64,000 nt of DNA, from the IMG/VR virus record IMGVR_UViG_3300020112_002303, positions 1-64,000 of that record; one strand, given 5' to 3'. Below are positions 2,246 through 63,505 of this stretch, in pieces (position 1 is the first letter of the stretch; every line of letters starts with the position of its first letter). The translations under genes and the position numbers were made by a program. Source of the DNA: a virus. Lineage: Duplodnaviria; Caudoviricetes. The notes below the pieces were generated by a model. The model saw nothing but the letters and a program-made list of their open reading frames with translations. It did not search any database and was not told the origin of the DNA.

Positions 2246-3101
2246 ATGTCTAACTTGCTTATGCAAAAAACAGCTTCAAGGTCTTGGAGAAAAATCTCGG
2301 AAATTTAAGTGAAGAGTCGAGGCAAAGGCTAGTTGATTCTAAGATTCTTGATTATAAAAGGGATATGAAAGGGTTAAAGGAAGGTACAGAAGCCATACTT
2401 GGTAAGAATGGAACTAAGCAAATTTCACCCCGAAAAATGAAAAAACACACAACTAAAATATTTATTGATGCAATAAATTCGTCTCCAGAATTAAAGAAAT
2501 CAATAGCTCGTGATTATTCGATACCTCTGTTAAATAGTGAAAACAAAATTGTGTCAAATAGCATTGTAAAAGGGGTAGCAAAAGCGAATGTAAGACAAAG
2601 GATTAATCAATCCGGAGGGTATATATCCTCTAACGACGGAAAATATGTCTCTTTTGGTAAAAGCCCTAAAAAATTGAACAAACATCCTGCAGTGGGATCA
2701 GAATTAAAAGAAATATATAAAAAAATGTTACCATTAGAAAAGCAATATGTCGATAAAGTATTCAGAAGGCATGAGATTGACGAAACAAGAGAGCTTCTTT
2801 CTAAAAAGAAGAGCAATAGAAGGGTAAATATTCTTGGTGTAAGCGCTCCCGCTACTTCAACAAGCTTTGGTCATTATTCCCCAGGGTATTATTTAGGGAA
2901 TCATCAAATGTTGCATCGGCTCCGAAAAATGTGAGAGATTATTTTGATACACTGAGAAGCAAAACATATGAAAAGGATTGGCTTAAAAATTACTCTAATC
3001 ATGATTATGGAAAAAATGGCGTTTTTGATAAGAAAAACAGCAATTACTTATCAAATACTATTTCGCGTGCAAACAGAAATGCTCTAAACAGTAAAACATA
3101 A
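2246..3101 (+). pseudogene. leader-bearing HExxE protein interrupted by two single-base frameshifts
   Basis: GGAGGAG RBS + MSNLLMQKTAS at 2246; one extra A near 2290 joins ORF 2284; one extra G near 2885 extends it to TAA 3101; RRHEIDE motif. Confidence 0.65.
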
Positions 3102-3137
3102 CGAAAAAGATTGAAAAAAGTAATGAGGTGATGATTT

Positions 3138-4148
3138 ATGTTGGAGTCGTCTTTGGAAAAAATAGCAACAGTAGATAAAGGGGCGAGAAATTATATAATA
3201 GATACCCTTACTAATCGAGATGTTAAGGAAACAAGCTTTCCTAATCAAGCCAAATCAGAACTATTTCGCAACTATAAAGGATGGGAAAAGTCTGACCGGG
3301 AATCTCATAAAAAAGTTTACGAACAAATGAAAAAAACCTTTAATAAAGATAGAGAAGGATATTGTAAATTAGACAGTGATATGAGACGTTATCACGGTAT
3401 GACATATGATATTCCGAGATATAAAAAAGATAATAGTAAAATACGAAAATTTTTAATGATTGAAAGAAAAATTCCTAACCCGGAATGGGAAAAGGCAAAT
3501 AGTAATTATAAAAAACTTTATAACCTTAGGTACAATAAACTTTTTTATGATGCAGATGCTAATGCTTTCGCATTAGAGCAAAAAGGCAAAAAACAAGAAA
3601 AGGAAGCGAACGAAATGTCTGTGTTACTACAAGAAAAACTCGCATATTCGGATGCAAATGTTAACCGCGCAGTACAAATGAATCCGGACGGCACTTATGG
3701 TATGAAAAATAATCTTCGTACCAACTTTAATCATATCAAGCTTGATGTGAAGAATAATACCAATACCACTAAAATCGGAAAAGGCATAAATACCATTAAG
3801 AGTGACGCAACCAATATAAGGAACGCCTTTAAAACAAGCGGAAGTGCCGTAGGAGACGCTTTTAAAAACGGAACATCAAATGTAGTAGGTGCAATCAAAA
3901 ACAAGACAGGCGTAGGTACAGCCATTAAAAACAGTACGTCAAGTGTAGGAAGCGCTATTAAAACCGGCACAGGTACTGTTGGCAACGCAATTAAAGGATT
4001 GAGCAAAGGTTCTAAAATAGGTCTTGGTATTGCGGCCGCAGGTACAGCCGCAGCTATCATAGGAAGTAAGATTAAAAAGAAAAAGGAACAAAATAAAACC
4101 GCCGAAACCTTCGAAGAAATGCTTGAAAAAATGGCAAAAGAACAATAA
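3138..4148 (+). CDS. putative internal-head cargo polyprotein (two modules)
   Basis: MLESSLEKIA leader; internal MSVLLQEKLA at 3615; 11-mer repeats; TM helix + KKKK; ends KTAETFEEMLEKMA. Confidence 0.7.
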   Translation: MLESSLEKIATVDKGARNYIIDTLTNRDVKETSFPNQAKSELFRNYKGWEKSDRESHKKVYEQMKKTFNKDREGYCKLDSDMRRYHGMTYDIPRYKKDNSKIRKFLMIERKIPNPEWEKANSNYKKLYNLRYNKLFYDADANAFALEQKGKKQEKEANEMSVLLQEKLAYSDANVNRAVQMNPDGTYGMKNNLRTNFNHIKLDVKNNTNTTKIGKGINTIKSDATNIRNAFKTSGSAVGDAFKNGTSNVVGAIKNKTGVGTAIKNSTSSVGSAIKTGTGTVGNAIKGLSKGSKIGLGIAAAGTAAAIIGSKIKKKKEQNKTAETFEEMLEKMAKEQ

Positions 4149-4156
4149 GTATTAAC

Positions 4157-4183
4157 AAAGAACCTCCAAAAGAGGTTCTTTTT
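4157..4183 (+). terminator. intrinsic terminator
   Basis: AAAGAACCTC-caaaa-GAGGTTCTTT + T tract. Confidence 0.8.
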
Positions 4184-4188
4184 ATTTA

Positions 4189-4217
4189 TAGACTTTTGAA
4201 AATCCTTGTGATATAAT
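4189..4217 (+). promoter_or_regulatory. SigA-type promoter
   Basis: TAGACT-17-TATAAT, extended -10. Confidence 0.6.
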
Positions 4218-4245
4218 TAAAAAAAATGCAAAGGAGTAGTGATAT

Positions 4246-9177: not shown

Positions 9178-9648
9178 ATGTCAAATTTACTTATGGAAAA
9201 AATCGCAAAAGACAAGAAAGAGAAAGAAACAGGCCTATCTGATATGCCTCTCGTAAAAGGTCATCCTGAGTTTGGAACAGCAAAAAGCAGAAAAACTTAT
9301 AAAGCCCTACGTACTATTAGCGGCGGGGTAGTAGGCGGTTTCTCAGCACCGGCAGCTCTTGAACTTATTGGAGGAGCGGCTCATGATAAAAAAGGATATA
9401 AATCCAATCCAACAATAAGCACGAAACATAAACTTGTAGGAGCCGGTACAGGCGCACTTATCGGAGCAATAAATGCTGATAGGCAAATAAAAAAGGAAGA
9501 CAATAAAAATATGCTTAAAATGTTTAACGGAAATCAAGAAGCCGTTAATTACGCAAAAGTTCATGGCCTCGAATCTGCAATAAAAAAGTACGGTGACTTC
9601 ACAAAGAAAGCATCTTTCGAAGAAATGCTTGAAAATTACGAAAAATAA
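9178..9648 (+). CDS. putative head cargo protein, Gly-zipper
   Basis: MSNLLMEKIA leader; GGVVGG and GAGTGALIGA helices; KKASFEEMLENYEK tail. Confidence 0.7.
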   Translation: MSNLLMEKIAKDKKEKETGLSDMPLVKGHPEFGTAKSRKTYKALRTISGGVVGGFSAPAALELIGGAAHDKKGYKSNPTISTKHKLVGAGTGALIGAINADRQIKKEDNKNMLKMFNGNQEAVNYAKVHGLESAIKKYGDFTKKASFEEMLENYEK

Positions 9649-9748: not shown

Positions 9749-10690
9749 ATGTCATATTTATTAGAAGAAAAACTTGACGCAGAGAAAATTGCTCGAGCCG
9801 ATAAGCATGGTTATGACAAGAAGATAGATCATAGCACAGGAGCAAATTTTGATGTATTTGCTCTCCCGGCAAAAGGAAAAAGTGGTGCCGGAATTGGCGC
9901 AAGAGTAAGCGAGGCAAAGAGAGAAGTGCCTAAAAAAGTAAATAGTACAATTGAAGGAACAAAAAAGACTTTTGAAGGCGCAAAAAAGACACTTTCAAAA
10001 TATACCCCTAAAAATTATGTTCGTGATGCCGGTTACGACGCATACAATAAAGCCATGAGAGGTTATACTGAAGGAACCGTTAAATTTGACGATATTGCAA
10101 AAGCACAAAAGAAAGGCAGAGTTGTAGGCGGAATCAAATACGGTCTTGGCGCTGCAGGTACTGCTGCAGCTCTTACAGGTGCAACTGTAGGCGGAATCGC
10201 TCTCGCAAAGCATATTAAGAACAAGAAAAAGAAAGAGGAAGAAAAGTCAGCTTTTGATGTTGTTGATGAATTTTACAACGAAAAGTTAGCGTATGATGAT
10301 GCCAGAGTTAATCGTGCAGTGAAAATAAATAAAGATGGTACATATGCCATGAAGAAAAATCCCAGCACGATACTCAATAATGCAAAGTCTAAAGCAAAAG
10401 ATTATATTGGCAAATCAGGCGACAATGCAATGGCAAAAGCCGTAGAAAATTATGCTGCAAATTCCCCCGATATCGATCTCGGCGAATACTTAAATAAGGC
10501 AAAAGCAAGAGGACAAATGGCAGCAAAAGCTAAATTAGGTCTTGGTGCTGTCGGTACCGCTGCAGCTCTTGCAGGTGCAACCGCAGGTGGAATTGCTCTT
10601 ACGAAGCACATTAAGAACAAGAAAAAGAAAGAGGAAGAAAAGTCCGCTTTCGAAATTGTTGATGAAGCATACGAAGAGATTCTTGGTTAA
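9749..10690 (+). CDS. putative head cargo polyprotein with two TM-polyLys modules
   Basis: MSYLLEEKLDAEKIA; EKSAFDVVDEFYNEKLA linker; EKSAFEIVDEAYEE tail. Confidence 0.75.
   Translation: MSYLLEEKLDAEKIARADKHGYDKKIDHSTGANFDVFALPAKGKSGAGIGARVSEAKREVPKKVNSTIEGTKKTFEGAKKTLSKYTPKNYVRDAGYDAYNKAMRGYTEGTVKFDDIAKAQKKGRVVGGIKYGLGAAGTAAALTGATVGGIALAKHIKNKKKKEEEKSAFDVVDEFYNEKLAYDDARVNRAVKINKDGTYAMKKNPSTILNNAKSKAKDYIGKSGDNAMAKAVENYAANSPDIDLGEYLNKAKARGQMAAKAKLGLGAVGTAAALAGATAGGIALTKHIKNKKKKEEEKSAFEIVDEAYEEILG
10142..10666 (+). repeat. 129-bp imperfect direct repeat (10142-10270, 10538-10666)
   Basis: both copies encode GLGAxGTAAALxGATxGGIALxKHIKNKKKKEEEKSAFxxVDE. Confidence 0.9.
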
Positions 10691-10704: not shown

Positions 10705-11130
10705 ATGATTAACAAAGATCCTTCATCAAAAACATCTATATCAAAAGGTAAGGCGCCAATAGTGCGACCCAAACAAGAAATTGGTGGTATCGAAATGCTA
10801 TGGCCGGGACAAAAACAAGTCAGACCGACTGCAACAAAATCGGCGTTTGAAATTATTGATGATTATTTTGAAAAGAAAGCATCAATAGGTGCTGTAGCAG
10901 GAAAAGTCGGCAAAACAGTTCTTAATGGCGCAAAAACTCTCGGCAGAGATGTTGCAAGCGATTTAAGTAATCCATTTACAATGTTAAATGTAGGTTTAAC
11001 AGTAGCTCCTGCAATTTCAGAAGCAGTTGAAAACAGGAGAAAAGTAAAAGAGATGAGAGAAATACGATCTTCTAAAGCACCACAACAGCCTAAGGTACCA
11101 CAACAACCAAAAACACCTCAAATAAATTAA
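10705..11130 (+). CDS. putative head cargo protein
   Basis: internal KSAFEIIDDYFEKKAS linker followed by amphipathic/hydrophobic helix. Confidence 0.65.
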   Translation: MINKDPSSKTSISKGKAPIVRPKQEIGGIEMLWPGQKQVRPTATKSAFEIIDDYFEKKASIGAVAGKVGKTVLNGAKTLGRDVASDLSNPFTMLNVGLTVAPAISEAVENRRKVKEMREIRSSKAPQQPKVPQQPKTPQIN

Positions 11131-15820: not shown

Positions 15821-15857
15821 AAAATAAAAGGGAGCGCAATGTGCGCTCCTTATTTTT
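15821..15857. terminator. bidirectional terminator
   Basis: GGAGCGCA-atg-TGCGCTCC flanked by A/T tracts. Confidence 0.8.
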
Positions 15858-16317
15858 ATTCTTCGTCTTCGTCAATTTCGATATCTTCGATATCTTCATC
15901 TTCGATGTCTTCGTCATTCTTCTTGCTTTTAATAACAAGAATTGTTGTTGCGACTGCTGCTGTTGCTGCCAAAACTGATCCTGCGATGATAAGTAGTTTC
16001 TTTTTGCTCATCTTGTTTTCAGCTCCTTCGATCATTTTATCTGCTCCGTTTTCTGGTGCTTCAACTGTTTTCTCAACTGTCTCGTTAACGGTTTCTTCAA
16101 CTGTTTCCTCAACTGCCTTTGCCATCTCTGGTTCCTCCTTTTTGATTTCTTCTTTGACTTCATTAGTCTTTGCCATTGTGGTTTCCTCCTTTTTTGTCTC
16201 AACCTTTTCGGTTTTAACTGTCTTTGCTTTTTTGGTTTCATTTGCCTTTGCCATTTTTACTGTCTCCTTTTTTGTTTCTTTTTGAGTTTCATTTGTTTTT
16301 GTTTGAGTCTTTGCCAT
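15856..16317 (-). CDS. membrane-anchored low-complexity protein with six SD-preceded in-frame starts
   Basis: ATGs at 16317, 16254, 16176, 16125, 16035, 16011, each after GGAG(G)/GGAAGG; C-terminal TM helix + acidic tail. Confidence 0.8.
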   Translation of the reverse strand: MAKTQTKTNETQKETKKETVKMAKANETKKAKTVKTEKVETKKEETTMAKTNEVKEEIKKEEPEMAKAVEETVEETVNETVEKTVEAPENGADKMIEGAENKMSKKKLLIIAGSVLAATAAVATTILVIKSKKNDEDIEDEDIEDIEIDEDEE

Positions 16318-21584: not shown

Positions 21585-22169
21585 ATGAGTAAGTATAATG
21601 AACTTATTGAAAAGTGGGCAGAGGAAATGGTTGATGAAGCAGATGTTGCTGATGTTGACAATATTTCCGAAGACGAAGAAATGACCGCAGCAGAAGCAGC
21701 TGAAATTCTCGGCGAAGAATATGAAAATGTTTCCGATGTTATGGATCAAGCTCTTGCAGCCATGAAGGAAGCAGAAGAATATTTTGATGCCGCTGAAGAA
21801 GTAAGCAAGGAAGCAGAAGAGCAGTATGAAGCAGCTCAAGAGTATCTTGAGGATGCTGAAAAGAGAGCTTGTGCTTGCGAAGAAGTTTGCGATGCTATTG
21901 ATGAAGAAGGTCTTGATATCGAGGCCGACGAAGTTTCTGCTTATCTCGAAAAGACAGCATCTGTTTACAGTTCTGCATCAGAAGATATGGATACTTCATT
22001 GTCAATGATGAAGGAAGCTTCTGATAATTTTGATTCAGCAGAATCAGTAAAAGAGGCAGCTATTGAGCAGTACAACGAAGCAATGGAAATTCTTGAGAGT
22101 GCTGAAAAGTACGCTTGCGAATTAGAAGCTGCAGCAGAAGAATTATACGACTCTGTATCTGAAGAGTAA
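21585..22169 (+). CDS. very acidic coiled-coil protein, putative scaffold/core
   Basis: E/D/A-rich, internal duplication, many KxA sites, own promoter and terminator. Confidence 0.65.
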   Translation: MSKYNELIEKWAEEMVDEADVADVDNISEDEEMTAAEAAEILGEEYENVSDVMDQALAAMKEAEEYFDAAEEVSKEAEEQYEAAQEYLEDAEKRACACEEVCDAIDEEGLDIEADEVSAYLEKTASVYSSASEDMDTSLSMMKEASDNFDSAESVKEAAIEQYNEAMEILESAEKYACELEAAAEELYDSVSEE

Positions 22170-27676: not shown

Positions 27677-27922
27677 ATGGACCAAGAAAAACAATATTAT
27701 TGTGAGACTCTCGTCTTCCCTGGGGACGAAAAAAATCTTGCGTATATTTACAACAATTTTTGCGAGGACATATATAAAGAAATGAAATCCCCAAGCAAAA
27801 CATTGTTAATACTTACAATAATGTTTAAATGTTTTCCTGAAGAATACGAAGAATATTTAAAAGAATGTCCCCATAAAACAACAGATGAAAAGGTAGGAAA
27901 TAATGATGACTTTGAATTCTAA
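27677..27922 (+). CDS. hypothetical protein coupled to RNAP gene
   Basis: AGGTGA RBS, overlaps RNAP start. Confidence 0.6.
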   Translation: MDQEKQYYCETLVFPGDEKNLAYIYNNFCEDIYKEMKSPSKTLLILTIMFKCFPEEYEEYLKECPHKTTDEKVGNNDDFEF

Positions 27923-39723: not shown

Positions 39724-42048
39724 TTGTCATTTTGTAAAACAACTTCTTTTGAATTGAACGGAGATAACACAGAAGTTCTAACAGGCGAATTAAATAAAAC
39801 TGCTTCGTTTTCTTTGCCTGATGGATTCGTGTATGATCCTGAATATCTTTATTTAAAAGTAAGAGCTGTTAGTGGTGGAGAATACTGGGGTTGCAATAAG
39901 AATTACGATTATTTTCCTTGGGAAGAATTAAAAGCTCAAGCCAATACTTTCTTGTCCGCTCATGTATTTAAAAATCATGAAAACAAAAAGATTGAAGATG
40001 CTATCGGCGATATACTTTCAGTTATAGTTAACGATGAAATGAAATGTGTAGAGCTGATAATCAGAATCAGCAAAAGCGTTGCACCATCAATAACTAAAGG
40101 GTTTGAAAAAGGATTCATGACCGATGTTAGTATGGGATGCAGAGTAAAATATTCTGTTTGTTCAATTTGCGGAAACAAAGCAAAAACTAAGGTTGATTTT
40201 TGTGACCACATTAAATACGAACGTGGCCGAATCTATGATGACGGAAGACAAGTTTACGAAATAAATGTTGAGCCAAAATTTCACGATATATCTGCCGTTC
40301 TTAACGGTGCAGAAAAATCGGCAAAAGTATTAGACCTTAAACTTGAAACTTCGGATAATGTTAAAATTGATAGACCTATCACATCTATTAAAGTTGCTTG
40401 TGAGAATCAAAATGCTCTTGAAAAAGTTGCATCAGAAACTCCAATAAAGAGATTTACTTCTCCATTTTATTCTCCCGATATTGAAATGGAACATTTTATA
40501 GACAAGGAAGCACATTTAAATAAAATTTCCGAAATATCAAAGAGATTGGATGGAAAAGTTATTTCCTCATCTATTTCTGAATACAGGGATGATTTAGAAA
40601 AAAGATTGGGTAATATTGTTCCTCAACTTAAAATGCTATATGAAGATTTTCTTGATGAAAGATCCTGTGTTGATATAGGAAGAAAACTTCAGCGAATAGC
40701 CGACGAAAATCATTTAACAGAAAATGCTGTGTTCGGAAAATTCCTCGAATGCGCAGATTATTGTTCGATAGAATTTTCACCGCTTGAAATTTCACTGATA
40801 TTCAAATCTCTTATAGGTAAAAAAGTCAGCGAACAAAATCCTGCTCCTGAAATTCCGCAAAATCTTGATTCCGCGTACTCGGAGAATATTCCGTCAGGCG
40901 TCACCTGCACCAAAGTTCTTCGAGCTATTCCGAGAATGCAAACCTCATTACCCGCACTATCAAATAGTTCAAATCCTGGAACTGCGGCAAAGATTATTAT
41001 AATGAAAAGAATTTCAGGCACGCCGAAAGACGATGGTGTCGACACAGTTCGGAATATTTCTCCGATACTTGATATCCTTCGTCCTCTTATGGAAAGTCGT
41101 AGTATGCAAGCACAGTTCTTAGGGCCTCGTCTTACGAAGATGGCTTCTGAAAAGAGGAAACCAAATTTTGCAAGAGCTTCTAAGCATTTTGCTCCCATTC
41201 TGAAACTCAACAATCCTATATTTAAAACGGCTTCTGATATTGAAGATTTTGTAACAGGATATGCTTGGGCTGCTTACGAAAAAGAAAGAGAAGTAAGAGC
41301 GATGTCAAACAACTTTGACAGTAACGCAGAAAAAATCGCTTGCTTAATGGATGATGAATGCTTATCAAAACAAGCATCAGCTTTTACAAAATCATTAACT
41401 ATTGGTGTTCCTGCCGCATATGCTTATTCTGCTTGGCAAAGAGCAAGAATGAGAAACGGCAAGAAAGTATCGAGTATAAACAGAGCTATTGCAGAGAATC
41501 CTGATGGAACAGCCATGACTCAATTTTTAGCCGTAAACGGCGCCGCTAAATTTTTAAATAAAAATAAAACAGGTCAAGCAATAAAGAGTGGTGCAACCGG
41601 TATCGGTCGTGCGGTAAAAAGCGGAATAACTAACAATAAAATCGTAAAAGGCATTACAAATAAGATTCCAAAAGTTGCATTTGAAAAAAATATTATTGAA
41701 AATTCGTCTTTGGTATTGAATAATTCTGATATTGACGATATAATGATAAAAGAGGGTTATACTATTGACGATGTCAAGGCTATTAAAGCAAGTATTGTTT
41801 TCAACGAACTCAAAAAGGACGATTTAGCTGGAGATGTTTTGAAAAAAGCATCGTTAAATGAGGAAGATGTTAAAAATTACTTGCATTCCGCCAAAGACTT
41901 TGTTAAAATAAACCTTGAGAAAAATGCTCAACTTATATCTGATATGTCCTGCGGTAAATTAGGAGATGGAGATATGTTGGATATTGGAATGTTATCGAAA
42001 CTATACGATATTAAAAAAACATTTTTCAAAAAACCGAAAGGAGAATAA
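39724..42048 (+). CDS. prohead protease (assemblin/HK97-like fold) with long KxA-rich extension
   Basis: N.N.D.F, FKNH, VSMGC, CSICGN..CDH, F.DISAV; upstream of scaffolds and MCP; TTG start after GGAGG. Confidence 0.75.
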   Translation: MSFCKTTSFELNGDNTEVLTGELNKTASFSLPDGFVYDPEYLYLKVRAVSGGEYWGCNKNYDYFPWEELKAQANTFLSAHVFKNHENKKIEDAIGDILSVIVNDEMKCVELIIRISKSVAPSITKGFEKGFMTDVSMGCRVKYSVCSICGNKAKTKVDFCDHIKYERGRIYDDGRQVYEINVEPKFHDISAVLNGAEKSAKVLDLKLETSDNVKIDRPITSIKVACENQNALEKVASETPIKRFTSPFYSPDIEMEHFIDKEAHLNKISEISKRLDGKVISSSISEYRDDLEKRLGNIVPQLKMLYEDFLDERSCVDIGRKLQRIADENHLTENAVFGKFLECADYCSIEFSPLEISLIFKSLIGKKVSEQNPAPEIPQNLDSAYSENIPSGVTCTKVLRAIPRMQTSLPALSNSSNPGTAAKIIIMKRISGTPKDDGVDTVRNISPILDILRPLMESRSMQAQFLGPRLTKMASEKRKPNFARASKHFAPILKLNNPIFKTASDIEDFVTGYAWAAYEKEREVRAMSNNFDSNAEKIACLMDDECLSKQASAFTKSLTIGVPAAYAYSAWQRARMRNGKKVSSINRAIAENPDGTAMTQFLAVNGAAKFLNKNKTGQAIKSGATGIGRAVKSGITNNKIVKGITNKIPKVAFEKNIIENSSLVLNNSDIDDIMIKEGYTIDDVKAIKASIVFNELKKDDLAGDVLKKASLNEEDVKNYLHSAKDFVKINLEKNAQLISDMSCGKLGDGDMLDIGMLSKLYDIKKTFFKKPKGE

Positions 42049-42052
42049 TTTC

Positions 42053-42625
42053 ATGGATGCAAAAAATTCTATGCTCTCTGCATTTGAATCTCTTGGGTTA
42101 GATCCAAACTATTCTAATGTATCAGAGAAAACAGCAGACGAAATCGAAGACGATGTTGAGGTCGTTGACGACAATATCGATCTTGCCGGTTATTTAAAAT
42201 TTGCAGAAAGTCTCTCAGAAGCTGCAGAAGATGACGGCGACGATTCCGATGTTAACGAAGGCGCTGATGATGACAATGATGATGATGTAGTTATCGAAAA
42301 CGCTGACGAAGGCGACGAAAGCGTTGCTGACGAAGGTGCTGACGAAGGTGCTGACGAAGGTGCTGACGAAGGCGAAGGTGCTGATGTTGAGGCTTCGGAA
42401 AGTGATGCCGAGGTTGAAAAGTTTGCTTACGAAGTGATCGAAACAAAGATGGATATGTTAGGTCTTTCTTTGAAAGATTATGTAGAACGTCAAATTCAAA
42501 ATGAAGTTCTTGCTGAAACAATCTCTGTTGATGCTGAGAAAGTTGCTTCTGTTACTCAAGTGTCTCCGTATAAAGTTGCGGACGATATGATTGATGCTTT
42601 GATTTCAAAATTGTCACAGTCTTAA
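42053..42625 (+). CDS. acidic scaffold-like protein
   Basis: D/E-rich; EKTA, KFA, EKFA, EKVAS sites. Confidence 0.65.
   Translation: MDAKNSMLSAFESLGLDPNYSNVSEKTADEIEDDVEVVDDNIDLAGYLKFAESLSEAAEDDGDDSDVNEGADDDNDDDVVIENADEGDESVADEGADEGADEGADEGEGADVEASESDAEVEKFAYEVIETKMDMLGLSLKDYVERQIQNEVLAETISVDAEKVASVTQVSPYKVADDMIDALISKLSQS
42326..42373 (+). repeat. 4 x 12-bp tandem repeat (ADEG)
   Basis: GCTGACGAAGG(T/C) x4. Confidence 0.9.
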
Positions 42626-43103: not shown

Positions 43104-43703
43104 ATGATTAAACCTGCAAACAGATTTGATAATTATACTTACAGGGTATCAGAGTATAATGTTGCAAGTTCCCTTTTGGGTTCTACGCTCGAAGCAGGAA
43201 CATTTGTTAAGGTTAACTCTAATCACGAGTTAATTAAGGCAACTGGTGCTTCAGGTGAAAAAGCATTCATTATGACATCCTCTGAAGTAGTCGGAAGAGA
43301 TACTCTTACCGGAAGAGCAACTTGTAAGGGCAATATCCTTATGGGTGCTCATATTCTTGATACCGATCAGTTTGATAAAACCGAAGGTGTTACTTATGCG
43401 CCGGGCAAGGCATTAAAAGTGTCTGCAAACGGTATTCTTACACCTGTAACAATAGCCGTTTATAATGCTGTAACAGGTGAAACCGCTCCTGAATGGGTAG
43501 CAAATACCTATTATTCAAAGAGTGGCAACGCATATATTTTGACAACTGAACAGCCTGCTGATTGGGCAACAACCTATACATCTTATTATACAAAGTCAAT
43601 AGTGGATGGTGTTGATGCTTCAATCGTAAAAGGCACAATTGTTGCTTATGCTCTTTCCGGAGTACAAAGCGACGGCACAATTAGGGTTTATATTTTGCCG
43701 TAA
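43104..43703 (+). CDS. capsid decoration protein, paralog 1 (with aromatic insert)
   Basis: paralogous to 43759-44232; lies upstream of MCP. Confidence 0.7.
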   Translation: MIKPANRFDNYTYRVSEYNVASSLLGSTLEAGTFVKVNSNHELIKATGASGEKAFIMTSSEVVGRDTLTGRATCKGNILMGAHILDTDQFDKTEGVTYAPGKALKVSANGILTPVTIAVYNAVTGETAPEWVANTYYSKSGNAYILTTEQPADWATTYTSYYTKSIVDGVDASIVKGTIVAYALSGVQSDGTIRVYILP

Positions 43704-44263: not shown

Positions 44264-45328
44264 ATGGCAAATACAAGAATTAAGACAGCTTCAGAGACTG
44301 TCAGCGCAGATTACAATATCGCAAGAATGCTTGAAGAGCCCGATGGTTTTAACAAGATCGCTCTTGAAAAGCTTCCCCCATTCATTCGTGAACTTCGTGA
44401 TTATGAGGCTTTCGGTAGAAAGATTCTTATGACTCACAATGTTTCTTCTGAAGACCTTCACCTCATTGATGGTGAACCTTATGTTTACTATCCGAAGGAT
44501 CAAAATGCTCATGCGGCATTCTTCGGTGATGATGCAGAGACTCCTCGTTACCAAGTTGAAGGCGACGGCGTTAATGTTGGTATTATGACCATCATTTCCG
44601 ACAACCACACCATTCATCTTAAGAGATTGATGGTTCAAAAGTATCAATATCTTGAGCGTGTTCGTGAGCTTTCTGCTCAATCTATGGTTAAGGCTGAAGA
44701 CCTTAAGATTATTGAACTTACCGAGCGTTTGCTCATGGGTAACGGCGGCGACGGTGCTACCGGCCACTCAGCTCCTGCTAATGCTGGCCAAATCGCAACA
44801 ACTACATCTACCGTACTCCAAAAGAATGATCTTATCGGTCTTATGCAAAAGATTTCTCAGAACGACATCCCTGTTGGTGCTTTCGTAATGAACCAAGCTA
44901 CTATCCAAGACACTCTTAAGTGGGGCTTTGGTACTACCGGTTCTGATATCGACCAGCTCACACAGAGAGAGATGCTCGAAACCGGCGTTAAGTATAAGTT
45001 CTGGAATATCCCGATGGTTACATCTCGTATTATCCCAAGAACTCTCGTATACTGCTATGCTGACAAGGAATTTGTTGGCCGTATGCCAATCCTTAAGGAC
45101 TTGACCGTTGAACTCACCAATACTTCTACTCGTCTTGAAAAGGGTTTGTTTATGTATGAGTTCGTAGGTATGTACCTTGCTTCTCAAAAGGCAGTTGCAA
45201 AACTTATCATCGGCTTTACTGACGGCGACAAGAAGATTCACCTTACTAGCGATGCTGAAGGTGTTTATGCTCGTGAAATGGAAATTATCAAAGACATCAA
45301 GGGTTACGGCTCTCGCGAAGGTCGCTAA
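44264..45328 (+). CDS. major capsid protein (HK97 fold)
   Basis: about 354 aa, strongly biased codon usage, LRDYEAFGRK, KAEDLKII, FVMN, IPMVTSRIIP; followed by terminator. Confidence 0.85.
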   Translation: MANTRIKTASETVSADYNIARMLEEPDGFNKIALEKLPPFIRELRDYEAFGRKILMTHNVSSEDLHLIDGEPYVYYPKDQNAHAAFFGDDAETPRYQVEGDGVNVGIMTIISDNHTIHLKRLMVQKYQYLERVRELSAQSMVKAEDLKIIELTERLLMGNGGDGATGHSAPANAGQIATTTSTVLQKNDLIGLMQKISQNDIPVGAFVMNQATIQDTLKWGFGTTGSDIDQLTQREMLETGVKYKFWNIPMVTSRIIPRTLVYCYADKEFVGRMPILKDLTVELTNTSTRLEKGLFMYEFVGMYLASQKAVAKLIIGFTDGDKKIHLTSDAEGVYAREMEIIKDIKGYGSREGR

Positions 45329-45423: not shown

Positions 45424-45852
45424 ATGATTACAATTAAAGTAAAATATATCGGCAATGACGAAGAAGGAATTCTTATTGGCGGAGAACTTTGTCGACCAGG
45501 AAAAGTGAGAGAAGTCACTATTGATGAAGAACAATTGGAAGTTCTCAAGAAAGCGACGAAGAGAGTTCCTCCGTGGATTGAATTAACTGATTACGATGTA
45601 GCTGTTGCCGAAGAAACTGTTGAAAAAACTGTTGAAGAACCGGTTGTTGAAGAAACAGTTGTTGAAGAAACAGTTGTTGAAGAAACAGTTGTTGAAGAAA
45701 CAGTTGTTGAAGAAACAGTTGTTGAAGAAACAGTTGAAGAAACAGTTGAAGAAACAGTTGAAGAAACAGTTGATGAACCGGCTGTTGAAGAAGTAGCTAC
45801 TGAAAAAGTAGCCGAAGAAGCTCCGAAGACCAAAAAAGGTCGCAAAAAATAA
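45424..45852 (+). CDS. small post-capsid protein with VVEET repeats and basic tail
   Basis: AAGGAG RBS; low-complexity linker. Confidence 0.75.
   Translation: MITIKVKYIGNDEEGILIGGELCRPGKVREVTIDEEQLEVLKKATKRVPPWIELTDYDVAVAEETVEKTVEEPVVEETVVEETVVEETVVEETVVEETVVEETVEETVEETVEETVDEPAVEEVATEKVAEEAPKTKKGRKK
45643..45768 (+). repeat. 6 x 15-bp + 3 x 12-bp perfect tandem repeat
   Basis: GTTGTTGAAGAAACA x6, GTTGAAGAAACA x3. Confidence 0.95.
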
Positions 45853-48452: not shown

Positions 48453-50318
48453 ATGTTAACAAACAAAAGAGCATATACTGAGCCGGGTGCATTCCTTAAG
48501 CTCGTAGATGCTACAGAAACCAATAACACGGCAACATCCAATATGGTGCCATTGTTTATCGGTACCGCTGGAAACTATGTTTTCAAAAACAGTAATCGAG
48601 TTACCAGAGGAGAAGCAAGCACAACTACAGGGTCAGTAACAACAATAAAATACGACAGTATCGATGTAGATGGAAACATTTCATCTTCCGGCAGCGAACC
48701 TTCCAACATTGTATCTCTCGGTTTTAGACCTGACCAAGAAGATTTTGTAGCCGGCGAACTAACTAAGTCGAGTGATATATATACTCTGACTGACTCTGAA
48801 CCTTCCGACTGGTCAAAAAACTACAAATCGTATTATACAGTGGCCACTTATGCTGCTGTAACAGGTTCGACTGCTCCAGTTTGGGTTGCAAAAAAATATT
48901 TCTCTAAATCCGGAAATGTGTACACATTAACAACAACGCAACCTGCTGATTGGGCAACAACTTACACATCTTATTATACGGCTGCTACTTATGCTGCTGT
49001 AACAGGTTCTACTGCTCCTACTTGGGTTGTAAATACCTATTACTCAAAACACAATCCTGTAATAGGAGTAACTAACGACTATGCAACAGAAGTAATTTAT
49101 GATTCCGCTACAAAAAAATCAACAATCAATATCTATTGGAGCGTTGCTGGTTGTGCTAAGATTTTTACAGGATCTTATTACTATGTAAAGTATAAATTGC
49201 CACTTGGTTTCGGAATAAGCGAAGTAATGACTATTAGTGATGCTTCTAAAATTACAGAAACCTTGGGCGAATACACTTATATAGAAGGTACAGGAAGTAG
49301 TGCAACAAAAAAGATTAATCAACTTGCACTCGCAGTATATTTAGCATTAACTAATGGCGCGCCGTATGTTTATGCCCTCCCAATAAGCGAACCCAGTGGC
49401 ACAGAAACATACGCTTCATTGTATGCGAAGGCGCTTGCAGACAAAGCAGCATTTGTTAGTGATATTTGGAGAATTGTTCCTGTTGATATGCCTAAAATTG
49501 ATCAAAATCAAATTACAGTTCAAGATATTGCAGAATACAAGAGTATTCATGCTGCAGTCGATACTCATATCACAGCATGTTCTTCTTATGAAGAGAGAAA
49601 AGAGCGCACAGCGATTTATGGATTTGTTCCCGCAAATAGCGGTGAAGGCGCTGCTACAACAAAAGATGATAGACTTCAAGCAACTGCAAATTATGCAAGC
49701 ACCAAGAATAATCACAGAATAACCGTTGTTTATCCTTCGTATATATCTGTTGTTATTCCGGGAGATTCAACATTTACAGAAGTTGGCCCTCAGTTCCTTG
49801 CAGCGGCTTATACCGGAAGAGAAGCAAGTATAGTAGGATATTTACCAAAAACAAGAACAAGCTTACAAGGAATTTACGCTATCGGCGGAGATAAATTATC
49901 TCGTTCGGAAATGAATGCGCTAGCAAGTTACGGTGTAATGATTATCACCCAAGAAAAGGGTGAAGGTTCAGAAGTTTTAGTTCGTCATCAGTTGACTACT
50001 GCTTCCGATGAAAGCGCTATAACTAAGGGGATATCCGAAAATTCAATCGTTTATATTCGTGATTATTGTTCTAAGGTTTTAAGAGCAGTTTGCGAACAAT
50101 ACATCGGAACAGGTAATATTAACAATGAATTGATTGCAAGAATCAAAGGATCTCTTAACTCTCAAATATCAGCATTAAAAACCTCCGGTTACATTATTGA
50201 CGGAGAAATTACTGATATAGCGCAGAATCCTGAAAAAAGAGGATCTATCTTTGTTAACATTGCTGTTGCTGTTCCGTATCCTTGCAACACAATCGAATTA
50301 ACATTATATGTAGAATAA
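48453..50318 (+). CDS. tail sheath protein
   Basis: YTEPG.F, ALTNGA, LVRHQLTT, V.VPYPCN.I C-terminus. Confidence 0.88.
   Translation: MLTNKRAYTEPGAFLKLVDATETNNTATSNMVPLFIGTAGNYVFKNSNRVTRGEASTTTGSVTTIKYDSIDVDGNISSSGSEPSNIVSLGFRPDQEDFVAGELTKSSDIYTLTDSEPSDWSKNYKSYYTVATYAAVTGSTAPVWVAKKYFSKSGNVYTLTTTQPADWATTYTSYYTAATYAAVTGSTAPTWVVNTYYSKHNPVIGVTNDYATEVIYDSATKKSTINIYWSVAGCAKIFTGSYYYVKYKLPLGFGISEVMTISDASKITETLGEYTYIEGTGSSATKKINQLALAVYLALTNGAPYVYALPISEPSGTETYASLYAKALADKAAFVSDIWRIVPVDMPKIDQNQITVQDIAEYKSIHAAVDTHITACSSYEERKERTAIYGFVPANSGEGAATTKDDRLQATANYASTKNNHRITVVYPSYISVVIPGDSTFTEVGPQFLAAAYTGREASIVGYLPKTRTSLQGIYAIGGDKLSRSEMNALASYGVMIITQEKGEGSEVLVRHQLTTASDESAITKGISENSIVYIRDYCSKVLRAVCEQYIGTGNINNELIARIKGSLNSQISALKTSGYIIDGEITDIAQNPEKRGSIFVNIAVAVPYPCNTIELTLYVE
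48780..49049 (+). repeat. 47-aa-period aromatic repeat inserted in sheath
   Basis: YTLT..P.DW..Y.SYYT..TYAAVTGSTAP.W..Y(F/Y)SK x2. Confidence 0.85.
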
Positions 50319-51919: not shown

Positions 51920-54900
51920 TTTCATTGAGGCAAGACGGCGCCATGAACTATAACGACGAATCTTTACAGGAACTCGTCTCATTATCAAGAGAACAACTTA
52001 ATATTATGCAACAGCTTAATGTTAAATCTAACCCTGGAGGTATTTCAAGGATTGGTTCCGGGCAAGGTATTGCTGAGTATTCTGATATTCCGAGAGATGA
52101 AACGGAAGGACTGTTCAGTAGACTTTCAAAACAAGCCTCGGAAATGGGTAAAGATTTAAAGGAGAAAATGAGTAGGGCTCAGCAAGTTTCTCCCGAAGCA
52201 ACAAGTTATAGAAGCATGGATAAAAGTTCGTCCGGCGCATCCACGATAATGAGTGTTGTAGGAAATCTCGGAGCAAACGCATTAGGTGCTGCATCAAAAA
52301 GTCTTTTAGGTATGACAGTGATTCCTGCGGCTATAGGTGCTTATGTTGGATACGGAGTAAATCAGTTTGGTAATGTCAACGATATAGCTAAATATTCTCA
52401 AAGGTTTTCTACTAATTATATAGACTTTACAGAATCAAACAATAACAGAGGTAGCTCAGGATTTAGCGTAAGAGAGTCTTATGAGGTTGGTAGAGGAATA
52501 TATAATCTCGCCCCCAAAATGCGTATGAGCGTAGATACAATGAAAGATTTGACTATGCAATATTCCGAAAGCGGATTGCTTCGTAATGCATCAGATACTT
52601 CTTCTGTTATATCCAAAATAGAAGAACTTACAACTCAAGCAAAACAAATGGGAATTCTTCTTAATGAAATGAATGAAAACGGCAAAGTTGTAGCCCAAAT
52701 GGCTCAACTTTATAAAATGGGTGTTGGTACATCAAATTCTACAACTATCGCAGCAAGAACTAATCTTGCTAGCGGATTTCTCGGCGTTAATGCATCAACT
52801 CTCATGGACGCTACCGTACAAAATACAGCAAATATAGTAAGTGGTACAGGCATTTCCGCAACAAGTGTCGCAGGCGATATTTCTTCTGCAAACCTTGTTG
52901 GCGGAATGATGTATTCTCAGCTTGACAAATCAGGCACAATGACTTATGCTCAACGCCAAGCGTACAACTATATGAATAATATAGGTAAAGAAAATGTTGG
53001 CACGGAAATAACACAGTTAACGCAAGGTATTCTTAGTAGCAGTTTTACTGCTCCATTTCTTGCTTCTATTTACAAGTATGATGCATCTTCGGGACAAATG
53101 GTGATTGACCCATCCGCATTTAGTCAAGTTAGCAGTATGAGCAGTCTTACCCAAATGGGTCAATTAGGAAGCTCTAACTTGCAGGCTGCAGGTGTAACTA
53201 ATCCGAGCGCCGTTACAGAATTTATGAGCACAGCAGGAACTCGTGCAATGAATGATTTAGGAACAGTAGATAGAATCTCTCTTATTAAATCATTAGTTCA
53301 AAAAATAAAAAATCAATCTGGCGGAAGGCTTTCTGATATACAGATACTTCAAAGCTATTTTGGATTTTCATCAGAACAAGCAGCCCTAATGTCTACTTAT
53401 TTAAGTATTGATACTAATACGCTCGTTTCAGCTCAAGCCGTAACAAATACGCAAGAAAGCATGTCTGAAACGAGAGCAGCATTATATGGCGGATTAGGAG
53501 GATCGGTAAGTTCTTTTTTCGGTTCTATAGGTCAAGGTATAGCATCGCCTTTCGTTGCTATCGGATCAGGACTATCTTCATTAGGGTCCGATATAGGAAA
53601 AATAGGCGAGACTATTTGGTACGGAGACCAAATGTATGCAAATGATTTTGTTACTAATACGGATTTCTTTAATGTGGATCAAGACGAAAAAACAAAAAGA
53701 ATTAAAGCATGGAACGAACAAACAGCCAACACAAAATCACTTTATGACAATTTGTCCAGCAAACAAAAAGCTGCAATTAAAGGTTTAGGTTTCAGTCATA
53801 TAGGTGAAGATTTTGTTAATGCAGATGAAGTAGAATATGACAAATATGGTAAAATCAAAATAAGTTCTATGAATTTTGATGTTCTTGAAGACGGATATTC
53901 TTCAAAAGACATCGAAAACATGATAAAGCTCAAAAATCTCGGTATTACATCATCAAAAGAAATTACTCAATTATTGTACGAAGGGGAAAAATTCGGATTA
54001 AGTGACGATTCATATGAAGATATGGTAAAATGGATAAGGAATCCAGATGTTGATACAGTAAAAGTCATGAAATATCTTAATGATGCGGACACGGAAACAC
54101 TGCAAAGTATTTATAAGGAAAAAACTAATATTGAAGACCAGCAAGCCGATTTAGTTAAAAAAGCCATCGTCAGTCAAAAAATAAATGATAACCCTAATAA
54201 TAGTGCATGGGGTGGATTAAAACAATGGAGTGCCGAAAATAAAAAAGGAACTCGTTTTCTTGGTGATGCTCTTCTTGTAACTGGTGCTGCGCAAACAGCA
54301 TATACGATAGGACTTGCAGGAACAGCGGCCGCAGCCAGCACAACAGCATTGACCGTTGCGGGTTCTTCAACCGCACTGACCGTTGCAGGCACAGCCGCAG
54401 CAGGAGGAATGGCGGCTGCAGGATTATCTGCTGCGGCAACCGGCGTAGGAATTGGTGTTGGTGTAGCATTATTGATAGGTGCAGCATTACTTTATGCGTC
54501 ATCTATGGGTAATGAAGACGCAGAATTTCTACAAAAGATGAAAGAAAAAGTAGACAACGGAGAAACCTTAACTGAAGCAGAGACTAAAAAAGTGAATCGC
54601 CTTCTCGATGAGCATAACAAGGCCACAGCCAAAAATATTCTTAATACTTTTGAAAGTGGTAAAGGAATAACCGATGAGAACGGCAATTATTTAAAAACAA
54701 GCAAGAACAGAGAAACACAGCAAGGATTGAACTTGATTAATAATAATGTTGTTGATGAAGTTACCGGTCTTTCTGCAAAAGATATTCTTGAAAACACTGC
54801 TACTGCTAAAAAATATTTTGCAGAACATACTAACCAAACTGCCGAGGATGCAGTACAAAGAATGACTCTTAAATACAGCACGGTTTCAAAGAACGTTCTT

Positions 54901-55095
54901 AGTGCAATGACTGAAACCAATATAGCCGAAGAAGTCGTTGAAAATCCGCTACTCGGAAGAATCGATAAGAGTGTTCTTGGTATCTATAATTTGATGTTAA
55001 GAGATGCTGGCAAGGATGAAGATTGGGCTAATGAAAATCTATACGGCGAGAATAGCATTTATCATGATCCCGGTAACACAGCTATCGTAAATTAA
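51916..55095 (+). CDS. tape measure protein
   Basis: 1059 aa, A/G/S-rich helical with hydrophobic stretches, follows chaperone. Confidence 0.8.
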   Translation: MISLRQDGAMNYNDESLQELVSLSREQLNIMQQLNVKSNPGGISRIGSGQGIAEYSDIPRDETEGLFSRLSKQASEMGKDLKEKMSRAQQVSPEATSYRSMDKSSSGASTIMSVVGNLGANALGAASKSLLGMTVIPAAIGAYVGYGVNQFGNVNDIAKYSQRFSTNYIDFTESNNNRGSSGFSVRESYEVGRGIYNLAPKMRMSVDTMKDLTMQYSESGLLRNASDTSSVISKIEELTTQAKQMGILLNEMNENGKVVAQMAQLYKMGVGTSNSTTIAARTNLASGFLGVNASTLMDATVQNTANIVSGTGISATSVAGDISSANLVGGMMYSQLDKSGTMTYAQRQAYNYMNNIGKENVGTEITQLTQGILSSSFTAPFLASIYKYDASSGQMVIDPSAFSQVSSMSSLTQMGQLGSSNLQAAGVTNPSAVTEFMSTAGTRAMNDLGTVDRISLIKSLVQKIKNQSGGRLSDIQILQSYFGFSSEQAALMSTYLSIDTNTLVSAQAVTNTQESMSETRAALYGGLGGSVSSFFGSIGQGIASPFVAIGSGLSSLGSDIGKIGETIWYGDQMYANDFVTNTDFFNVDQDEKTKRIKAWNEQTANTKSLYDNLSSKQKAAIKGLGFSHIGEDFVNADEVEYDKYGKIKISSMNFDVLEDGYSSKDIENMIKLKNLGITSSKEITQLLYEGEKFGLSDDSYEDMVKWIRNPDVDTVKVMKYLNDADTETLQSIYKEKTNIEDQQADLVKKAIVSQKINDNPNNSAWGGLKQWSAENKKGTRFLGDALLVTGAAQTAYTIGLAGTAAAASTTALTVAGSSTALTVAGTAAAGGMAAAGLSAAATGVGIGVGVALLIGAALLYASSMGNEDAEFLQKMKEKVDNGETLTEAETKKVNRLLDEHNKATAKNILNTFESGKGITDENGNYLKTSKNRETQQGLNLINNNVVDEVTGLSAKDILENTATAKKYFAEHTNQTAEDAVQRMTLKYSTVSKNVLSAMTETNIAEEVVENPLLGRIDKSVLGIYNLMLRDAGKDEDWANENLYGENSIYHDPGNTAIVN

Positions 55096-55109
55096 AAGGA
55101 GCATTAATT

Positions 55110-55760
55110 ATGTCCATAAAAAACGATTTTATGATTCAACGAACGAATGACGACAGGGCACAAATAAATGTTTTGTCTGACAAAATGGATGAGATTTATA
55201 GAGAAGTCGTAAAAATAAAAGAAGCTAATGCCGGTTATATTTCCAGCTCTGTTTATGCGCCATATATTTCAAAAGCAAGAAATATTTGTTCTGATTTGCA
55301 AGAATTTTATGATACTTATATGAACGATAGGATATTATATCGAAAAGGATCTAATGCGTATATTCAAGCAATAAATGAAGCCGCCGATAAATCTGTTAAT
55401 AACATTCATATTATTAAAAGTGGGATTTTAACAAATAATGGCCAAGCAATATCAAATACACCAGAAATAACAATAAGCAATAATAGTAGTGGTTATTATG
55501 GAAGCCCAAATAAACTGGCAGTCAAATGTACTATTGCTCGGAGTGATTCTTCCTCTGTATCCGAAATTGTTAAGACTAAAGGTAGTTTTCCGGAAATATA
55601 TCCAGGTAATATAAAAATAATTTCATTAACAAAACCTACATTTTCCGGCGCAGGTGGCACGTACACAAAAATGGTCACAGAAATACTTAAATATTATGAC
55701 GATGATTCAGGATACGATGTAATTGCTTCTTATCTCGAAAGTTGCAATCTAACCTTTTAA
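55110..55760 (+). CDS. hypothetical tail-region protein
   Basis: operonic, AAGGAG RBS. Confidence 0.6.
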   Translation: MSIKNDFMIQRTNDDRAQINVLSDKMDEIYREVVKIKEANAGYISSSVYAPYISKARNICSDLQEFYDTYMNDRILYRKGSNAYIQAINEAADKSVNNIHIIKSGILTNNGQAISNTPEITISNNSSGYYGSPNKLAVKCTIARSDSSSVSEIVKTKGSFPEIYPGNIKIISLTKPTFSGAGGTYTKMVTEILKYYDDDSGYDVIASYLESCNLTF

Positions 55761-62084: not shown

Positions 62085-62098
62085 GAGGTGAATTTTAA

Positions 62099-63163
62099 GT
62101 GAACAACCTGGATACATTTAATGGCACAAGAGAATATGCGCAGAGACAAAAAGACCGTCCCATTCTTGATATTGGATATGTAACGGCTGTTGACCCTGTA
62201 AACATCAAAGCCTCCGTAAAATTGCCTTATAGAAATACTATATTAAAAAATCTGCCGATATCTTTTAATTTCATGTCTTATGAGTTCGGAAACATTTCTT
62301 TTCCGCAAATAGGGAGCCCTGTAATTATTATGAGGTCGAGAAATATTCCTCCGTTCATTCTTTGTTCTGCTGGAAAACTGTTCAATTACGGTTCACGAAG
62401 CGATCTCACTGATATCGAACAATTGTTTGCAAATAAGGCAAGAGCATTCTTAAAACAAGCTTGTGACGGAGGACAAAATTTAGTTAGTGGTAATTTTGAT
62501 GTTTTCGAGCAAGATTCATTAGGGCAAACATCCAAAATAAGTAGATCGTTTGCTGACATTACACCTAATTGCAGAGATTTTGTAACAACAATAATAAATG
62601 GATATGGAATAAATTATAAGAAGATTGTTCAAAGAACTATAAGATATACTGTCTCAAGTGCCAGTACGATTGAAACAAATGCCGTAAATATTATTGAATA
62701 TGCAAAAGCTCTTGCTGATAAGCTTGACGCTTGTATTAATGCGCCGAATGGAGAAAATCCTGTCACTATCAACAGTTTGCGTTCTATTTCCGAATTTCTT
62801 GATACAAAGGATATTTTTGGAGAGACCGAATATCCAACAAGCACTAAAGATAATATTGATGAATTTTCGGAAGCAATATTAAATGTATCGAGTTTGATGC
62901 TTTGGTTTAATGGCTCGGAGATTGTGCAGTATGGCGATGTCGTCGTGGTACAAACCGGCGCACGAATTTCAAGCAATATAGAAAATATAAATGAGCTCGA
63001 AGATGAAATGGCAGACACTGTTGATTTCAGCGGAGCAAGAACGATATTCTCATTGGATTATGCATCAAGTAAAAATGGTGATTTAGAAAAGAAATTTTCC
63101 GTTACTAATAGGGGCGCAAAAATAAATGAAGGTAGTATCGGACGATTTGTACCGAATAATTAG
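62099..63163 (+). CDS. putative baseplate spike (gpV/gp5-like OB fold)
   Basis: G.VTAVD...V..P, FPQIGS.V. Confidence 0.55.
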   Translation: MNNLDTFNGTREYAQRQKDRPILDIGYVTAVDPVNIKASVKLPYRNTILKNLPISFNFMSYEFGNISFPQIGSPVIIMRSRNIPPFILCSAGKLFNYGSRSDLTDIEQLFANKARAFLKQACDGGQNLVSGNFDVFEQDSLGQTSKISRSFADITPNCRDFVTTIINGYGINYKKIVQRTIRYTVSSASTIETNAVNIIEYAKALADKLDACINAPNGENPVTINSLRSISEFLDTKDIFGETEYPTSTKDNIDEFSEAILNVSSLMLWFNGSEIVQYGDVVVVQTGARISSNIENINELEDEMADTVDFSGARTIFSLDYASSKNGDLEKKFSVTNRGAKINEGSIGRFVPNN

Positions 63164-63178
63164 TAGGGGGAAATCACT

Positions 63179-63505
63179 ATGTCGCAATTGCTTATGGAAA
63201 AGATGGCAATGATAAGAAATACTGTTGAAAGTTCAAATATCCGCTCTATTGGATATAGTCCAATTAGCAGAAAAATGGAAATTGAATTTAAAGGCGGAAG
63301 CATTTATCAATACAAGGGTGCATCAGCAAATGTGTATAAAAACATTATGGATGCGGAGTCGAAGGGTAAATATTTTCATAAAAATATCAGATATAAGTTG
63401 CCATATAAACAAGTATTAAATAAAGATGGTGAAAAAGTTAAGAGCGATTGGAAAGTATTAGATAATCCTAAATCTAAAAAGAAAACAGATGAAGACAAAT
63501 CATGA
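63179..63505 (+). CDS. KTSC-domain protein with MSQLLMEKMA leader
   Basis: VESSNIRSIGY, IEFKGGSIYQY, AESKGKYFHKNIR. Confidence 0.9.
   Translation: MSQLLMEKMAMIRNTVESSNIRSIGYSPISRKMEIEFKGGSIYQYKGASANVYKNIMDAESKGKYFHKNIRYKLPYKQVLNKDGEKVKSDWKVLDNPKSKKKTDEDKS

Follow-up and report, generated by a model that had tools for sequence, protein, structure and literature searches.

A Recurrent N-Terminal Tag Ending in Lys-x-Ala as a Probable Capsid-Addressing Propeptide in an Uncultured Phage of Clostridia-Type Bacteria

The window considered here, i.e., the whole stretch of DNA that was analyzed, covers positions 1–64,000 of a virus record of 102,257 bp (IMG/VR record IMGVR_UViG_3300020112_002303; Duplodnaviria, Caudoviricetes) with ~35% G+C and strong Shine-Dalgarno (SD) sites. 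Proteins of several kinds encoded by this genome begin with nearly the same ten residues, M-S-x-L-L-x-[E/Q]-K-x-A, termed the strict tag or leader in the following, and we consider it probable that this peptide is a cleavable capsid-addressing propeptide resembling the capsid targeting sequence (CTS) of phage T4, with an Ala-specific cut. Its last five residues, namely a hydrophobic residue (phi), Glu or Gln, Lys, any residue, and Ala, are predicted to be what the prohead protease of the phage itself, an enzyme with the gp21/assemblin fold, recognizes. Cleavage, encapsidation, and injection of the tagged proteins are proposed by analogy with phages T4 and P1, and the cut would fall after the Ala of K-x-A, a placement suggested by Ser being the residue most often found after the motif, as it is at the sites of herpesvirus assemblin.

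The window contains four strict copies of the tag, against 0.00 in 100 shuffles searched with the back-translated pattern, and the whole genome contains ten, the other six being located at 74092, 75136, 76459, 76651, 77785, and, on the minus strand, 79736. Beside these, the gene at 9749 has a near-strict double leader, and five others have looser N-terminal forms, phi-x-E-K-x-A, two of which are in the window (3138 and 21585) and three beyond it (65187, 75615, and 81313, the last on the minus strand). Altogether, about 16 proteins bear the tag, a sigma factor and an SNF2 helicase among them. A preliminary description of this DNA had pointed to near-identical N-termini at 2246, 3615 (internal to the open reading frame, ORF, 3138–4148), 9178, 9749, and 63179, with looser variants at 3138 and 21585; all seven translate as written, and the phenomenon proves larger than was described there. 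A strong SD site lies 6–9 nt 5' of every one of these starts, except for that at 3615. Two or three synonymous codons are used for each of the invariant residues (Ser, Leu, Leu, Lys, and Ala), and the DNA similarity between most copies ends at the last leader codon; selection hence acts on the peptide and not on the DNA.

The end of the tag recurs well beyond these N-termini. Six genomes were compared whole: the present one (G000), four complete relatives with terminal repeats and lengths of 152–168 kb (G002–G005), and a 48-kb fragment (G001). In the proteome of the present genome E-K-x-A occurs 43–45 times, versus 13–15 expected from per-protein shuffles, and five permuted control motifs stay at expectation; both the excess and the behavior of the controls are the same in six out of six genomes. 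Bare K-x-A finds no support as a motif across this genome (202 versus 189 expected), and the enriched unit is phi-[E/Q/Y]-K-x-A. Regarding the protein classes, phi-E-K-x-A is found 14 times in head-module proteins, where 1.1 are expected (about 13-fold), not once in tail and baseplate proteins (0.7 expected), once in the replication-type proteins of the minus strand (1.6 expected), and 17 times in the cargo clusters (1.1 expected), this last class having been defined after the motif was seen, whereas the head, tail, and replication classes are independent of it. Two genes of the minus strand, 79736 and 81313, also carry the motif.

The motif is densest in the protein that would have to read it. 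The gene at 39724–42048 (+) encodes a prohead protease (PHROG protease match) in fusion with a helical scaffold-like region; with the ORF counted from 39658, the protease domain lies at about residues 50–230. The protein has four predicted self-cleavage sites: L-N-K-T-A at 39790–39804, L-E-K-V-A at 40417–40431, E-K-I-A at 41329–41340, and E-K-N-A at 41917–41928. These sites are kept in 76–95 of 109 homologues. Across 120 protease-scaffold homologues (31–45% identity), E-K-x-A is found 552 times versus 56 expected (9.8-fold), and E-K-x-A followed by Ser or Ala 259 times versus 8.4; the T4-type motif L-x-E, with 448 occurrences versus 503 expected, is not enriched, and for this reason a T4-like cut inside the leader, after the Glu of L-M-E, was rejected. 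In the alignment the motif forms conserved islands with variable flanks at reference residues ~255, 558, and 754, with a related island, L-x-K-T-A-S, at ~45–50. At the conserved sites Ser is the most frequent next residue, and at the site beside the protease domain, where Ala at P1 is fixed by the search pattern, Ser occupies P1' in 90% of the homologues. One further site, at residue 219, lies inside an invariant core block and may be structural instead of a cut site.

In an AlphaFold model of this protein built from 83 sequences (mean pLDDT 76.6; an earlier model from 7 sequences, with a pLDDT of 47, was not used), the sites at residues 45–49 and 254–258 are placed in two disordered, low-pLDDT linkers that flank the folded domain, residues 50–230. 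The best fold match of this domain is T4 gp21 (5jbl_B; Z 10.8, rmsd 2.6 Å, 128 residues), followed by the herpesvirus proteases (Z 8–9), and a His and a Ser are invariant across the 83 homologues. Pfam gave no match for the protease, either with single sequences or with seven members, and neither did a sequence search of the PDB.

The same motif marks boundaries in other head proteins. The portal protein (25662–27668, +; PHROG portal match) has a variable N-terminal propeptide ending in E-L-E-K-T-A (25830–25847) just before its conserved core, and in five relatives, too, the variable part is closed by K-x-A directly before the core. The major capsid protein (44264–45328, +; PHROG major head match) begins with a 9-residue peptide ending in I-K-T-A (44264–44290), and in six of six genomes its start is a 6–10-residue peptide, M-x(1-6)-I-K-T-A, followed by a conserved [A/S]-E-T. 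An acidic scaffold-like protein (41966–42625, +) also contains E-K-x-A sites, and its homologues in the relatives have 2–4 of them. As read from the sequences, the islands of the protease-scaffold protein and the capsid and portal boundaries are features typical of the code of a maturation protease.

N-terminal leaders ending in K-x-A are found in every related genome as well, on 6–14 genes per genome and with a separate dialect in each: G003 uses ...I-E-K-x-A, G005 uses M-E-K-I-S-M-E-K-I-A together with M-D-K-V-A...Y-K-x-A forms, and G002 and G004 use M-D-K-I-A...I-Y-K-E-A forms, with two to four pentads in tandem making up some leaders of the relatives. In four of the six genomes (G000, G003, G004, and G005), the motif is most abundant in the bin of the first 15 residues. 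The leader is kept, while its other residues change, on the orthologues of the SNF2 helicase, of one family of small cargo proteins (family A, described below), of the acidic protein at 21585, and of the sigma factor. The helicase has a leader in four of five genomes, N-terminal in G000 and G003 and as an internal linker after an extra domain in G002 and G004. In these two (G002, 53913–55682, −; G004, 114961–116940, −), the extra domain of the helicase is a small N-terminal beta domain joined through the internal leader-like linker, and the helicase of the present genome begins directly with the leader. As for the sigma factor, 55 phage-type orthologues were taken as representatives at ≤50% identity from 1.8 billion proteins, and 40 of them have phi-x-K-x-A in their first 26 residues, against 8 of 70 distant sigmas and a frequency of 0.02 per 26 residues elsewhere in the same sigma proteins. 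Moreover, the relatives encode proteins of 1,000–1,200 residues carrying 9–12 sites, which are probably polyproteins.

In exact scans of IMG/VR, JGI metagenomes, and GTDB, the present M-S-x-L-L dialect was not encountered in another phage, unless near-identical records are withheld from these collections. The back-translated strict leader gave 2 loci in IMG/VR, 51 in the JGI metagenomes, and 44 in GTDB genomes, all single and taxonomically scattered, and no contig in these three scans had two strict-leader copies.

The tagged proteins include a KTSC-domain protein, a sigma-70-family factor, the SNF2 helicase, a very acidic protein, and small basic proteins in which Gly/Ala-rich hydrophobic segments are followed by poly-Lys. 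The KTSC protein (63179–63505, +) has its strict leader at 63179–63208 and its domain from residue 17 (Pfam KTSC, 1.2e-19). The sigma factor is the product of the tagged gene at 65187; Pfam returned no match for it with single sequences, and a profile of six orthologues matched SigA chains (5.8e-9) and SigF (1.2e-6) in the PDB. The helicase also gives a faint DarB-like PHROG match. The acidic head-module protein (21585–22169, +) begins with a 12-residue leader (21585–21620) and has three more E-K-x-A sites, and its positional counterparts in five of five related genomes start with a leader ending in E-K-x-A.

The payloads fall, according to BLASTP, into four families plus singletons: A (2246/2284, 75615, and 79736 on the minus strand), B (the C-terminal half of 3138, 9749, 10705, 74092, and 77924), C (9178 and 75136), and D (76459 and 77785). 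The payloads had been called otherwise unrelated in the preliminary description, which is too strong, many of them being paralogs; what stands is that between the payload classes, at least six of which have no other similarity, the leader alone is common.

In family A, the gene at 2246–2934 (+) has its strict leader at 2246–2275, in a 20-codon ORF that is 1 nt out of frame with the payload ORF (2284–2934) at a run of five A residues (about 2292–2296). Its paralog at 79736 (−) is in frame with one more A, and the frame change in the 2246 gene might reflect slippage, a pseudogene, or an error in the homopolymer. An Atlas search with this family gave no lead. The two-module protein at 3138–4148 (+) has a loose leader at 3138–3167, an internal strict leader at the module junction (3615–3644), and a C-terminal acidic helix with E-K-M-A (4101–4148); its C-terminal half is 43% identical to the 74092 protein, with the similarity beginning at the leader of the latter. 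For the 74092 protein itself no homologue was found among 5.8 billion proteins. The other family-B genes of the window are a two-module gene (9749–10690, +) with a 15-residue double leader (9749–9793), a linker with two E-K-x-A (10241–10291), and a C-terminal acidic helix (10631–10690), and a related gene for a small protein (10705–11130, +) with an internal acidic helix plus E-K-K-A (10870–10881). The family-C gene (9178–9648, +) encodes a Lys-rich protein with Gly/Ala-rich hydrophobic segments, a strict leader (9178–9207), and a C-terminal acidic helix (9604–9648).

An acidic amphipathic helix bracketed by K-x-A is a second recurrent element, either joining modules or ending the proteins at 3138, 9178, 9749, 10705, and 74092, and the leader resembles the second half of this acidic-helix linker. 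The motif is found at module junctions in three forms: the internal copy at 3615, an in-frame second leader at genome position 76651, and the acidic-helix linkers. The second of these belongs to a single ORF (genome 76459–77163) in which a 64-residue tagged mini-protein is followed by a promoter-like TTTGGTAAAAT with an SD site and then, in frame, by a second complete leader and a 170-residue payload, so that the products may be both fused and separate.

The preliminary description had interpreted the tag as an independent KxA-based system for packaging, cleaving, and injecting effectors. This interpretation is supported in part by the analysis, in which the end of the tag behaves as the motif of the phage's own prohead protease would: it is enriched only in head and cargo proteins, it forms islands in a protease-scaffold protein of gp21/assemblin fold, it closes the capsid and portal boundaries, and it recurs on several payload classes and in the relatives. 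Some points weigh against a capsid-addressing propeptide. The two tagged genes of the minus strand, 79736 and 81313, adjoin the replication module; no leader is present on the fused beta-beta' RNA polymerase, although this is the cargo candidate that suggests itself first; about a quarter of the sigma orthologues lack one; and the cargo-cluster counts suffer from the post hoc definition of that class. Finally, that the tag is so uniform within one genome could be due to recombination of a terminator-promoter-SD-leader cassette and not to a docking constraint.

Four rival explanations were weighed, of which the serious one, unlikely in our judgment, holds that the tag is a propeptide only: a pro-sequence, removable by the protease, that keeps the proteins inactive until maturation and has no role as a capsid address, with packaging decided elsewhere in the proteins. 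It draws strength from the 5-residue cleavage motif being all that the tag has in common with head structural proteins and from genome to genome, and from the removable N-terminal pro-sequences of pro-sigma-E and pro-sigma-K in sporulating Firmicutes. Nevertheless, within each genome the residues before the motif are uniform across unrelated payloads, here despite synonymous codon change, and the uniform M-S-x-L-L, which the sites of the structural proteins lack, speaks for a role additional to cleavage. In addition, the gp21-type prohead protease of T4 acts inside proheads, hence its substrates should already be inside.

It is still less probable that another enzyme reads the tag, either a host protease similar to Prp or a modifying enzyme using the leader as its recognition sequence. 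Prp, the ribosomal L27 protease, trims the capsid and scaffold proteins of the Firmicute phage 80-alpha, and short N-terminal leaders ending in Ala are known on those proteins; the present motif differs from the L27-type leader, in which two aromatic residues are followed by Ala. The motif also reaches its greatest density in the phage's own protease-scaffold protein, where it borders the protease fold, and no candidate modifying enzyme turned up beside the tagged genes among the scanned gene products.

Very improbable, too, is a nucleic-acid cassette, in which the shared start would be a repeated initiation, regulatory, or recombination element and the peptide would have no function. Such a unit does exist, as a terminator hairpin, a T-run, TGGTAAAAT, an SD site, and the leader occur together three times (genome 74010–74120, 75046–75161, and 77697–77810) at 78–98% identity. 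Most tag copies, in contrast, have only the 30 coding bases in common, with different codons for the invariant amino acids; the motif is also internal and at C-terminal module ends, and orthologues in genomes with unrelated DNA keep the peptide motif alone. The three cassette copies precede different payloads and are a likely substrate for cassette shuffling. Plain paralogy, i.e., the tag as the conserved N-terminus of one expanded gene family, uninformative about function, fits the payload families in two diverged clusters (2.2–11.1 kb and 74–81 kb) and is hardly credible when at least six payload classes are similar in the tag alone, when the KTSC, sigma, and SNF2 helicase folds are well defined and unrelated, and when the motif is also in the portal, the capsid protein, and the protease. 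A double-glycine peptide leader served by an exporter with a C39 peptidase was considered as well and rejected, since no leader here ends in the Gly-Gly of double-glycine bacteriocin leaders and no such exporter was found among the scanned gene products.

Among known systems, the T4 CTS, carried by internal proteins IPI–III and Alt and removed by gp21 (for background on the CTS and the internal-protein genes see PMC3012670 and PMC9026906), is close in form. In both cases an N-terminal peptide of ~10 residues is carried by diverse and fast-evolving proteins and ends at a motif that is cut by the prohead protease in T4 and is predicted to be so here, the proteases have the same fold (Z 10.8 to gp21), and the cargo genes are grouped in variable clusters with repeated regulatory DNA on their flanks. 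The systems differ in that phi-E-K-x-A, with a cut that would follow Ala, replaces the L/I-x-E of T4, which is not enriched here, and in that the present system, known from sequence alone, has a Clostridia-type host, sigma and SNF2 cargo as predicted, and tandem-pentad leaders that double as internal linkers.

The maturation and release sites of herpesvirus assemblin have the form hydrophobic-x-Ala, with the cut before Ser. The present protease has the same fold (Z 8–9), its motif likewise ends in Ala with Ser as the commonest next residue, and it, too, would be freed from a scaffold fusion by border cuts; what sets the present phage family apart is Lys at P3 and Glu at P4. Regarding phage P1, the N-terminal 30 residues of DarB, a large helicase-type antirestriction protein, suffice to load it and a reporter into the capsid (PMC9024508). 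The tagged SNF2 helicase with its faint DarB-like match is similar in this respect, while the P1 Dar proteins have no consensus tag and cleavage of their signal is not reported (PMC9024508). In the phiKZ and SPN3US phages, head and ejection proteins, the portal, and the protease are cut at A/S/G-x-E, some N-terminal propeptides have 20–24 residues, and a virion RNA polymerase is packaged (PMC10052503, PMC7598289). There, as here, one short motif is shared by many head proteins, the portal, and the protease, and an RNA polymerase is present; the motif is another one, the polymerase is split into subunits and not fused, and a uniform short tag on many cargo genes is not described.

If the tag is a capsid-addressing propeptide, the sequence of events might be as follows. 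Cargo would be synthesized bearing the tag, and, as the T4 CTS and P1 DarB suggest by analogy, the tag, perhaps with the acidic helix, would attach it to the scaffold or core while the prohead is being assembled; the docking would most likely be done by the extra conserved residues, which are M-S-x-L-L here and other dialects in the relatives. The gp21-fold protease would then release itself, the motif separating it from the scaffold region, and would trim the scaffolds, the portal propeptide, and the 9-residue start of the capsid protein. Next, it would remove the tags and cut multi-module cargo and polyproteins at their internal linkers. After trimming, the cargo would remain together with the DNA and the fused beta-beta' RNA polymerase until infection, when it would be ejected into the host. 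As cargo we propose the sigma-70-family factor, the SNF2 helicase, the KTSC protein, and the four families of small basic or Gly-zipper proteins.

A broader and more tentative reading, which we regard as possible, extends this to the whole uncultured family of 100–170-kb Clostridia phages. These would use a programmable code, N-terminal or at junctions and made of one to four tandem phi-[E/Y/D]-K-x-A pentads, for loading a transcription kit (sigma factor plus fused polymerase), the SNF2 helicase, and membrane-active or DNA-binding polyproteins, which the Ala-specific gp21-fold protease would free before injection, with lineage dialects matched to the respective scaffolds.

The preliminary description knew of no account of such a system; the principle, a capsid targeting sequence combined with a protease site, is already known from T4, P1, and the phiKZ-like giants (PMC10052503). 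New are the combination of a Lys/Ala motif with a gp21-fold protease, leaders built of tandem pentads that differ in dialect between lineages, the family of Clostridia phages itself, and the predicted cargo of a sigma factor beside a fused beta-beta' polymerase, and of an SNF2 helicase. A literature search found no published account of this phage family or of the motif, which is weak evidence of absence. Were the tag to act as proposed, one short motif would predict, from sequence, the full set of head-internal and injected proteins in a large uncultured family of Clostridia phages from gut and anaerobic digesters, a virion-delivered sigma factor and helicase included, and a new lineage with a remarkably clear signal would be at hand for testing how phages choose what to inject. 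It would also mean that a prohead protease with a gp21-like fold has a specificity (Lys at P3, Ala at P1) nearer to that of herpesvirus assemblin than to that of T4 gp21. From a practical point of view, the tag would be a minimal portable means of bringing foreign proteins into phage heads, a use to which the tags of T4 and P1 already lend themselves, and, if the code is family-wide, a portable 10-residue protein-delivery tag for Gram-positive anaerobes.

A close cultured phage was not found. The best protein-level matches, Bacillus phage G gp19 and cluster-C-type mycobacteriophages (such as Catera and ScottMcG), cover the protease domain only, and the share of the protease protein covered by a cultured relative nowhere exceeds 35%. 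Near-identity DNA searches among 50,697 phage records, made with 30 kb of the window, gave no match. On metagenomic contigs of up to 170 kb there are >330 protease-scaffold homologues, and some of these contigs belong to metagenome-assembled genomes named Herbinix, Paraclostridium, Anaerovoracaceae, and Clostridia. No terminal repeat was noticed in the 102-kb record, and, since the complete relatives have 152–168 kb, the present genome may be partial and may hold more tagged genes.

The multisubunit-type RNA polymerase mentioned above is encoded by 27903–34865 (+) as a single ORF of 2,320 residues, with all Rpb2 domains followed by the Rpb1 domains (Pfam Rpb2_6/7 and Rpb1_1-5), between the portal and protease genes. 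It has the same position in relative G001, where it has 2,805 residues, and it is a candidate virion enzyme. No second polymerase turned up among the scanned gene products, although no dedicated genome-wide search was made. Other genes recognized by PHROG/Pfam matches are those of the large terminase (18721) and the tail sheath (48453).

Two further similarities within the window deserve mention. Residues 116–180 of the head-module protein encoded next to the capsid gene (43104–43703) are 61% identical to residues 129–193 of the tail sheath (48453–50318), so that one inserted domain appears to be displayed on both head and tail. Short tandem DNA repeats at 45604–45777, inside the gene at 45424–45852, resemble a stretch at 16059–16115 (−) within the minus-strand gene at 15856–16317, and the proteins of these two genes are 41% identical over 90 residues.

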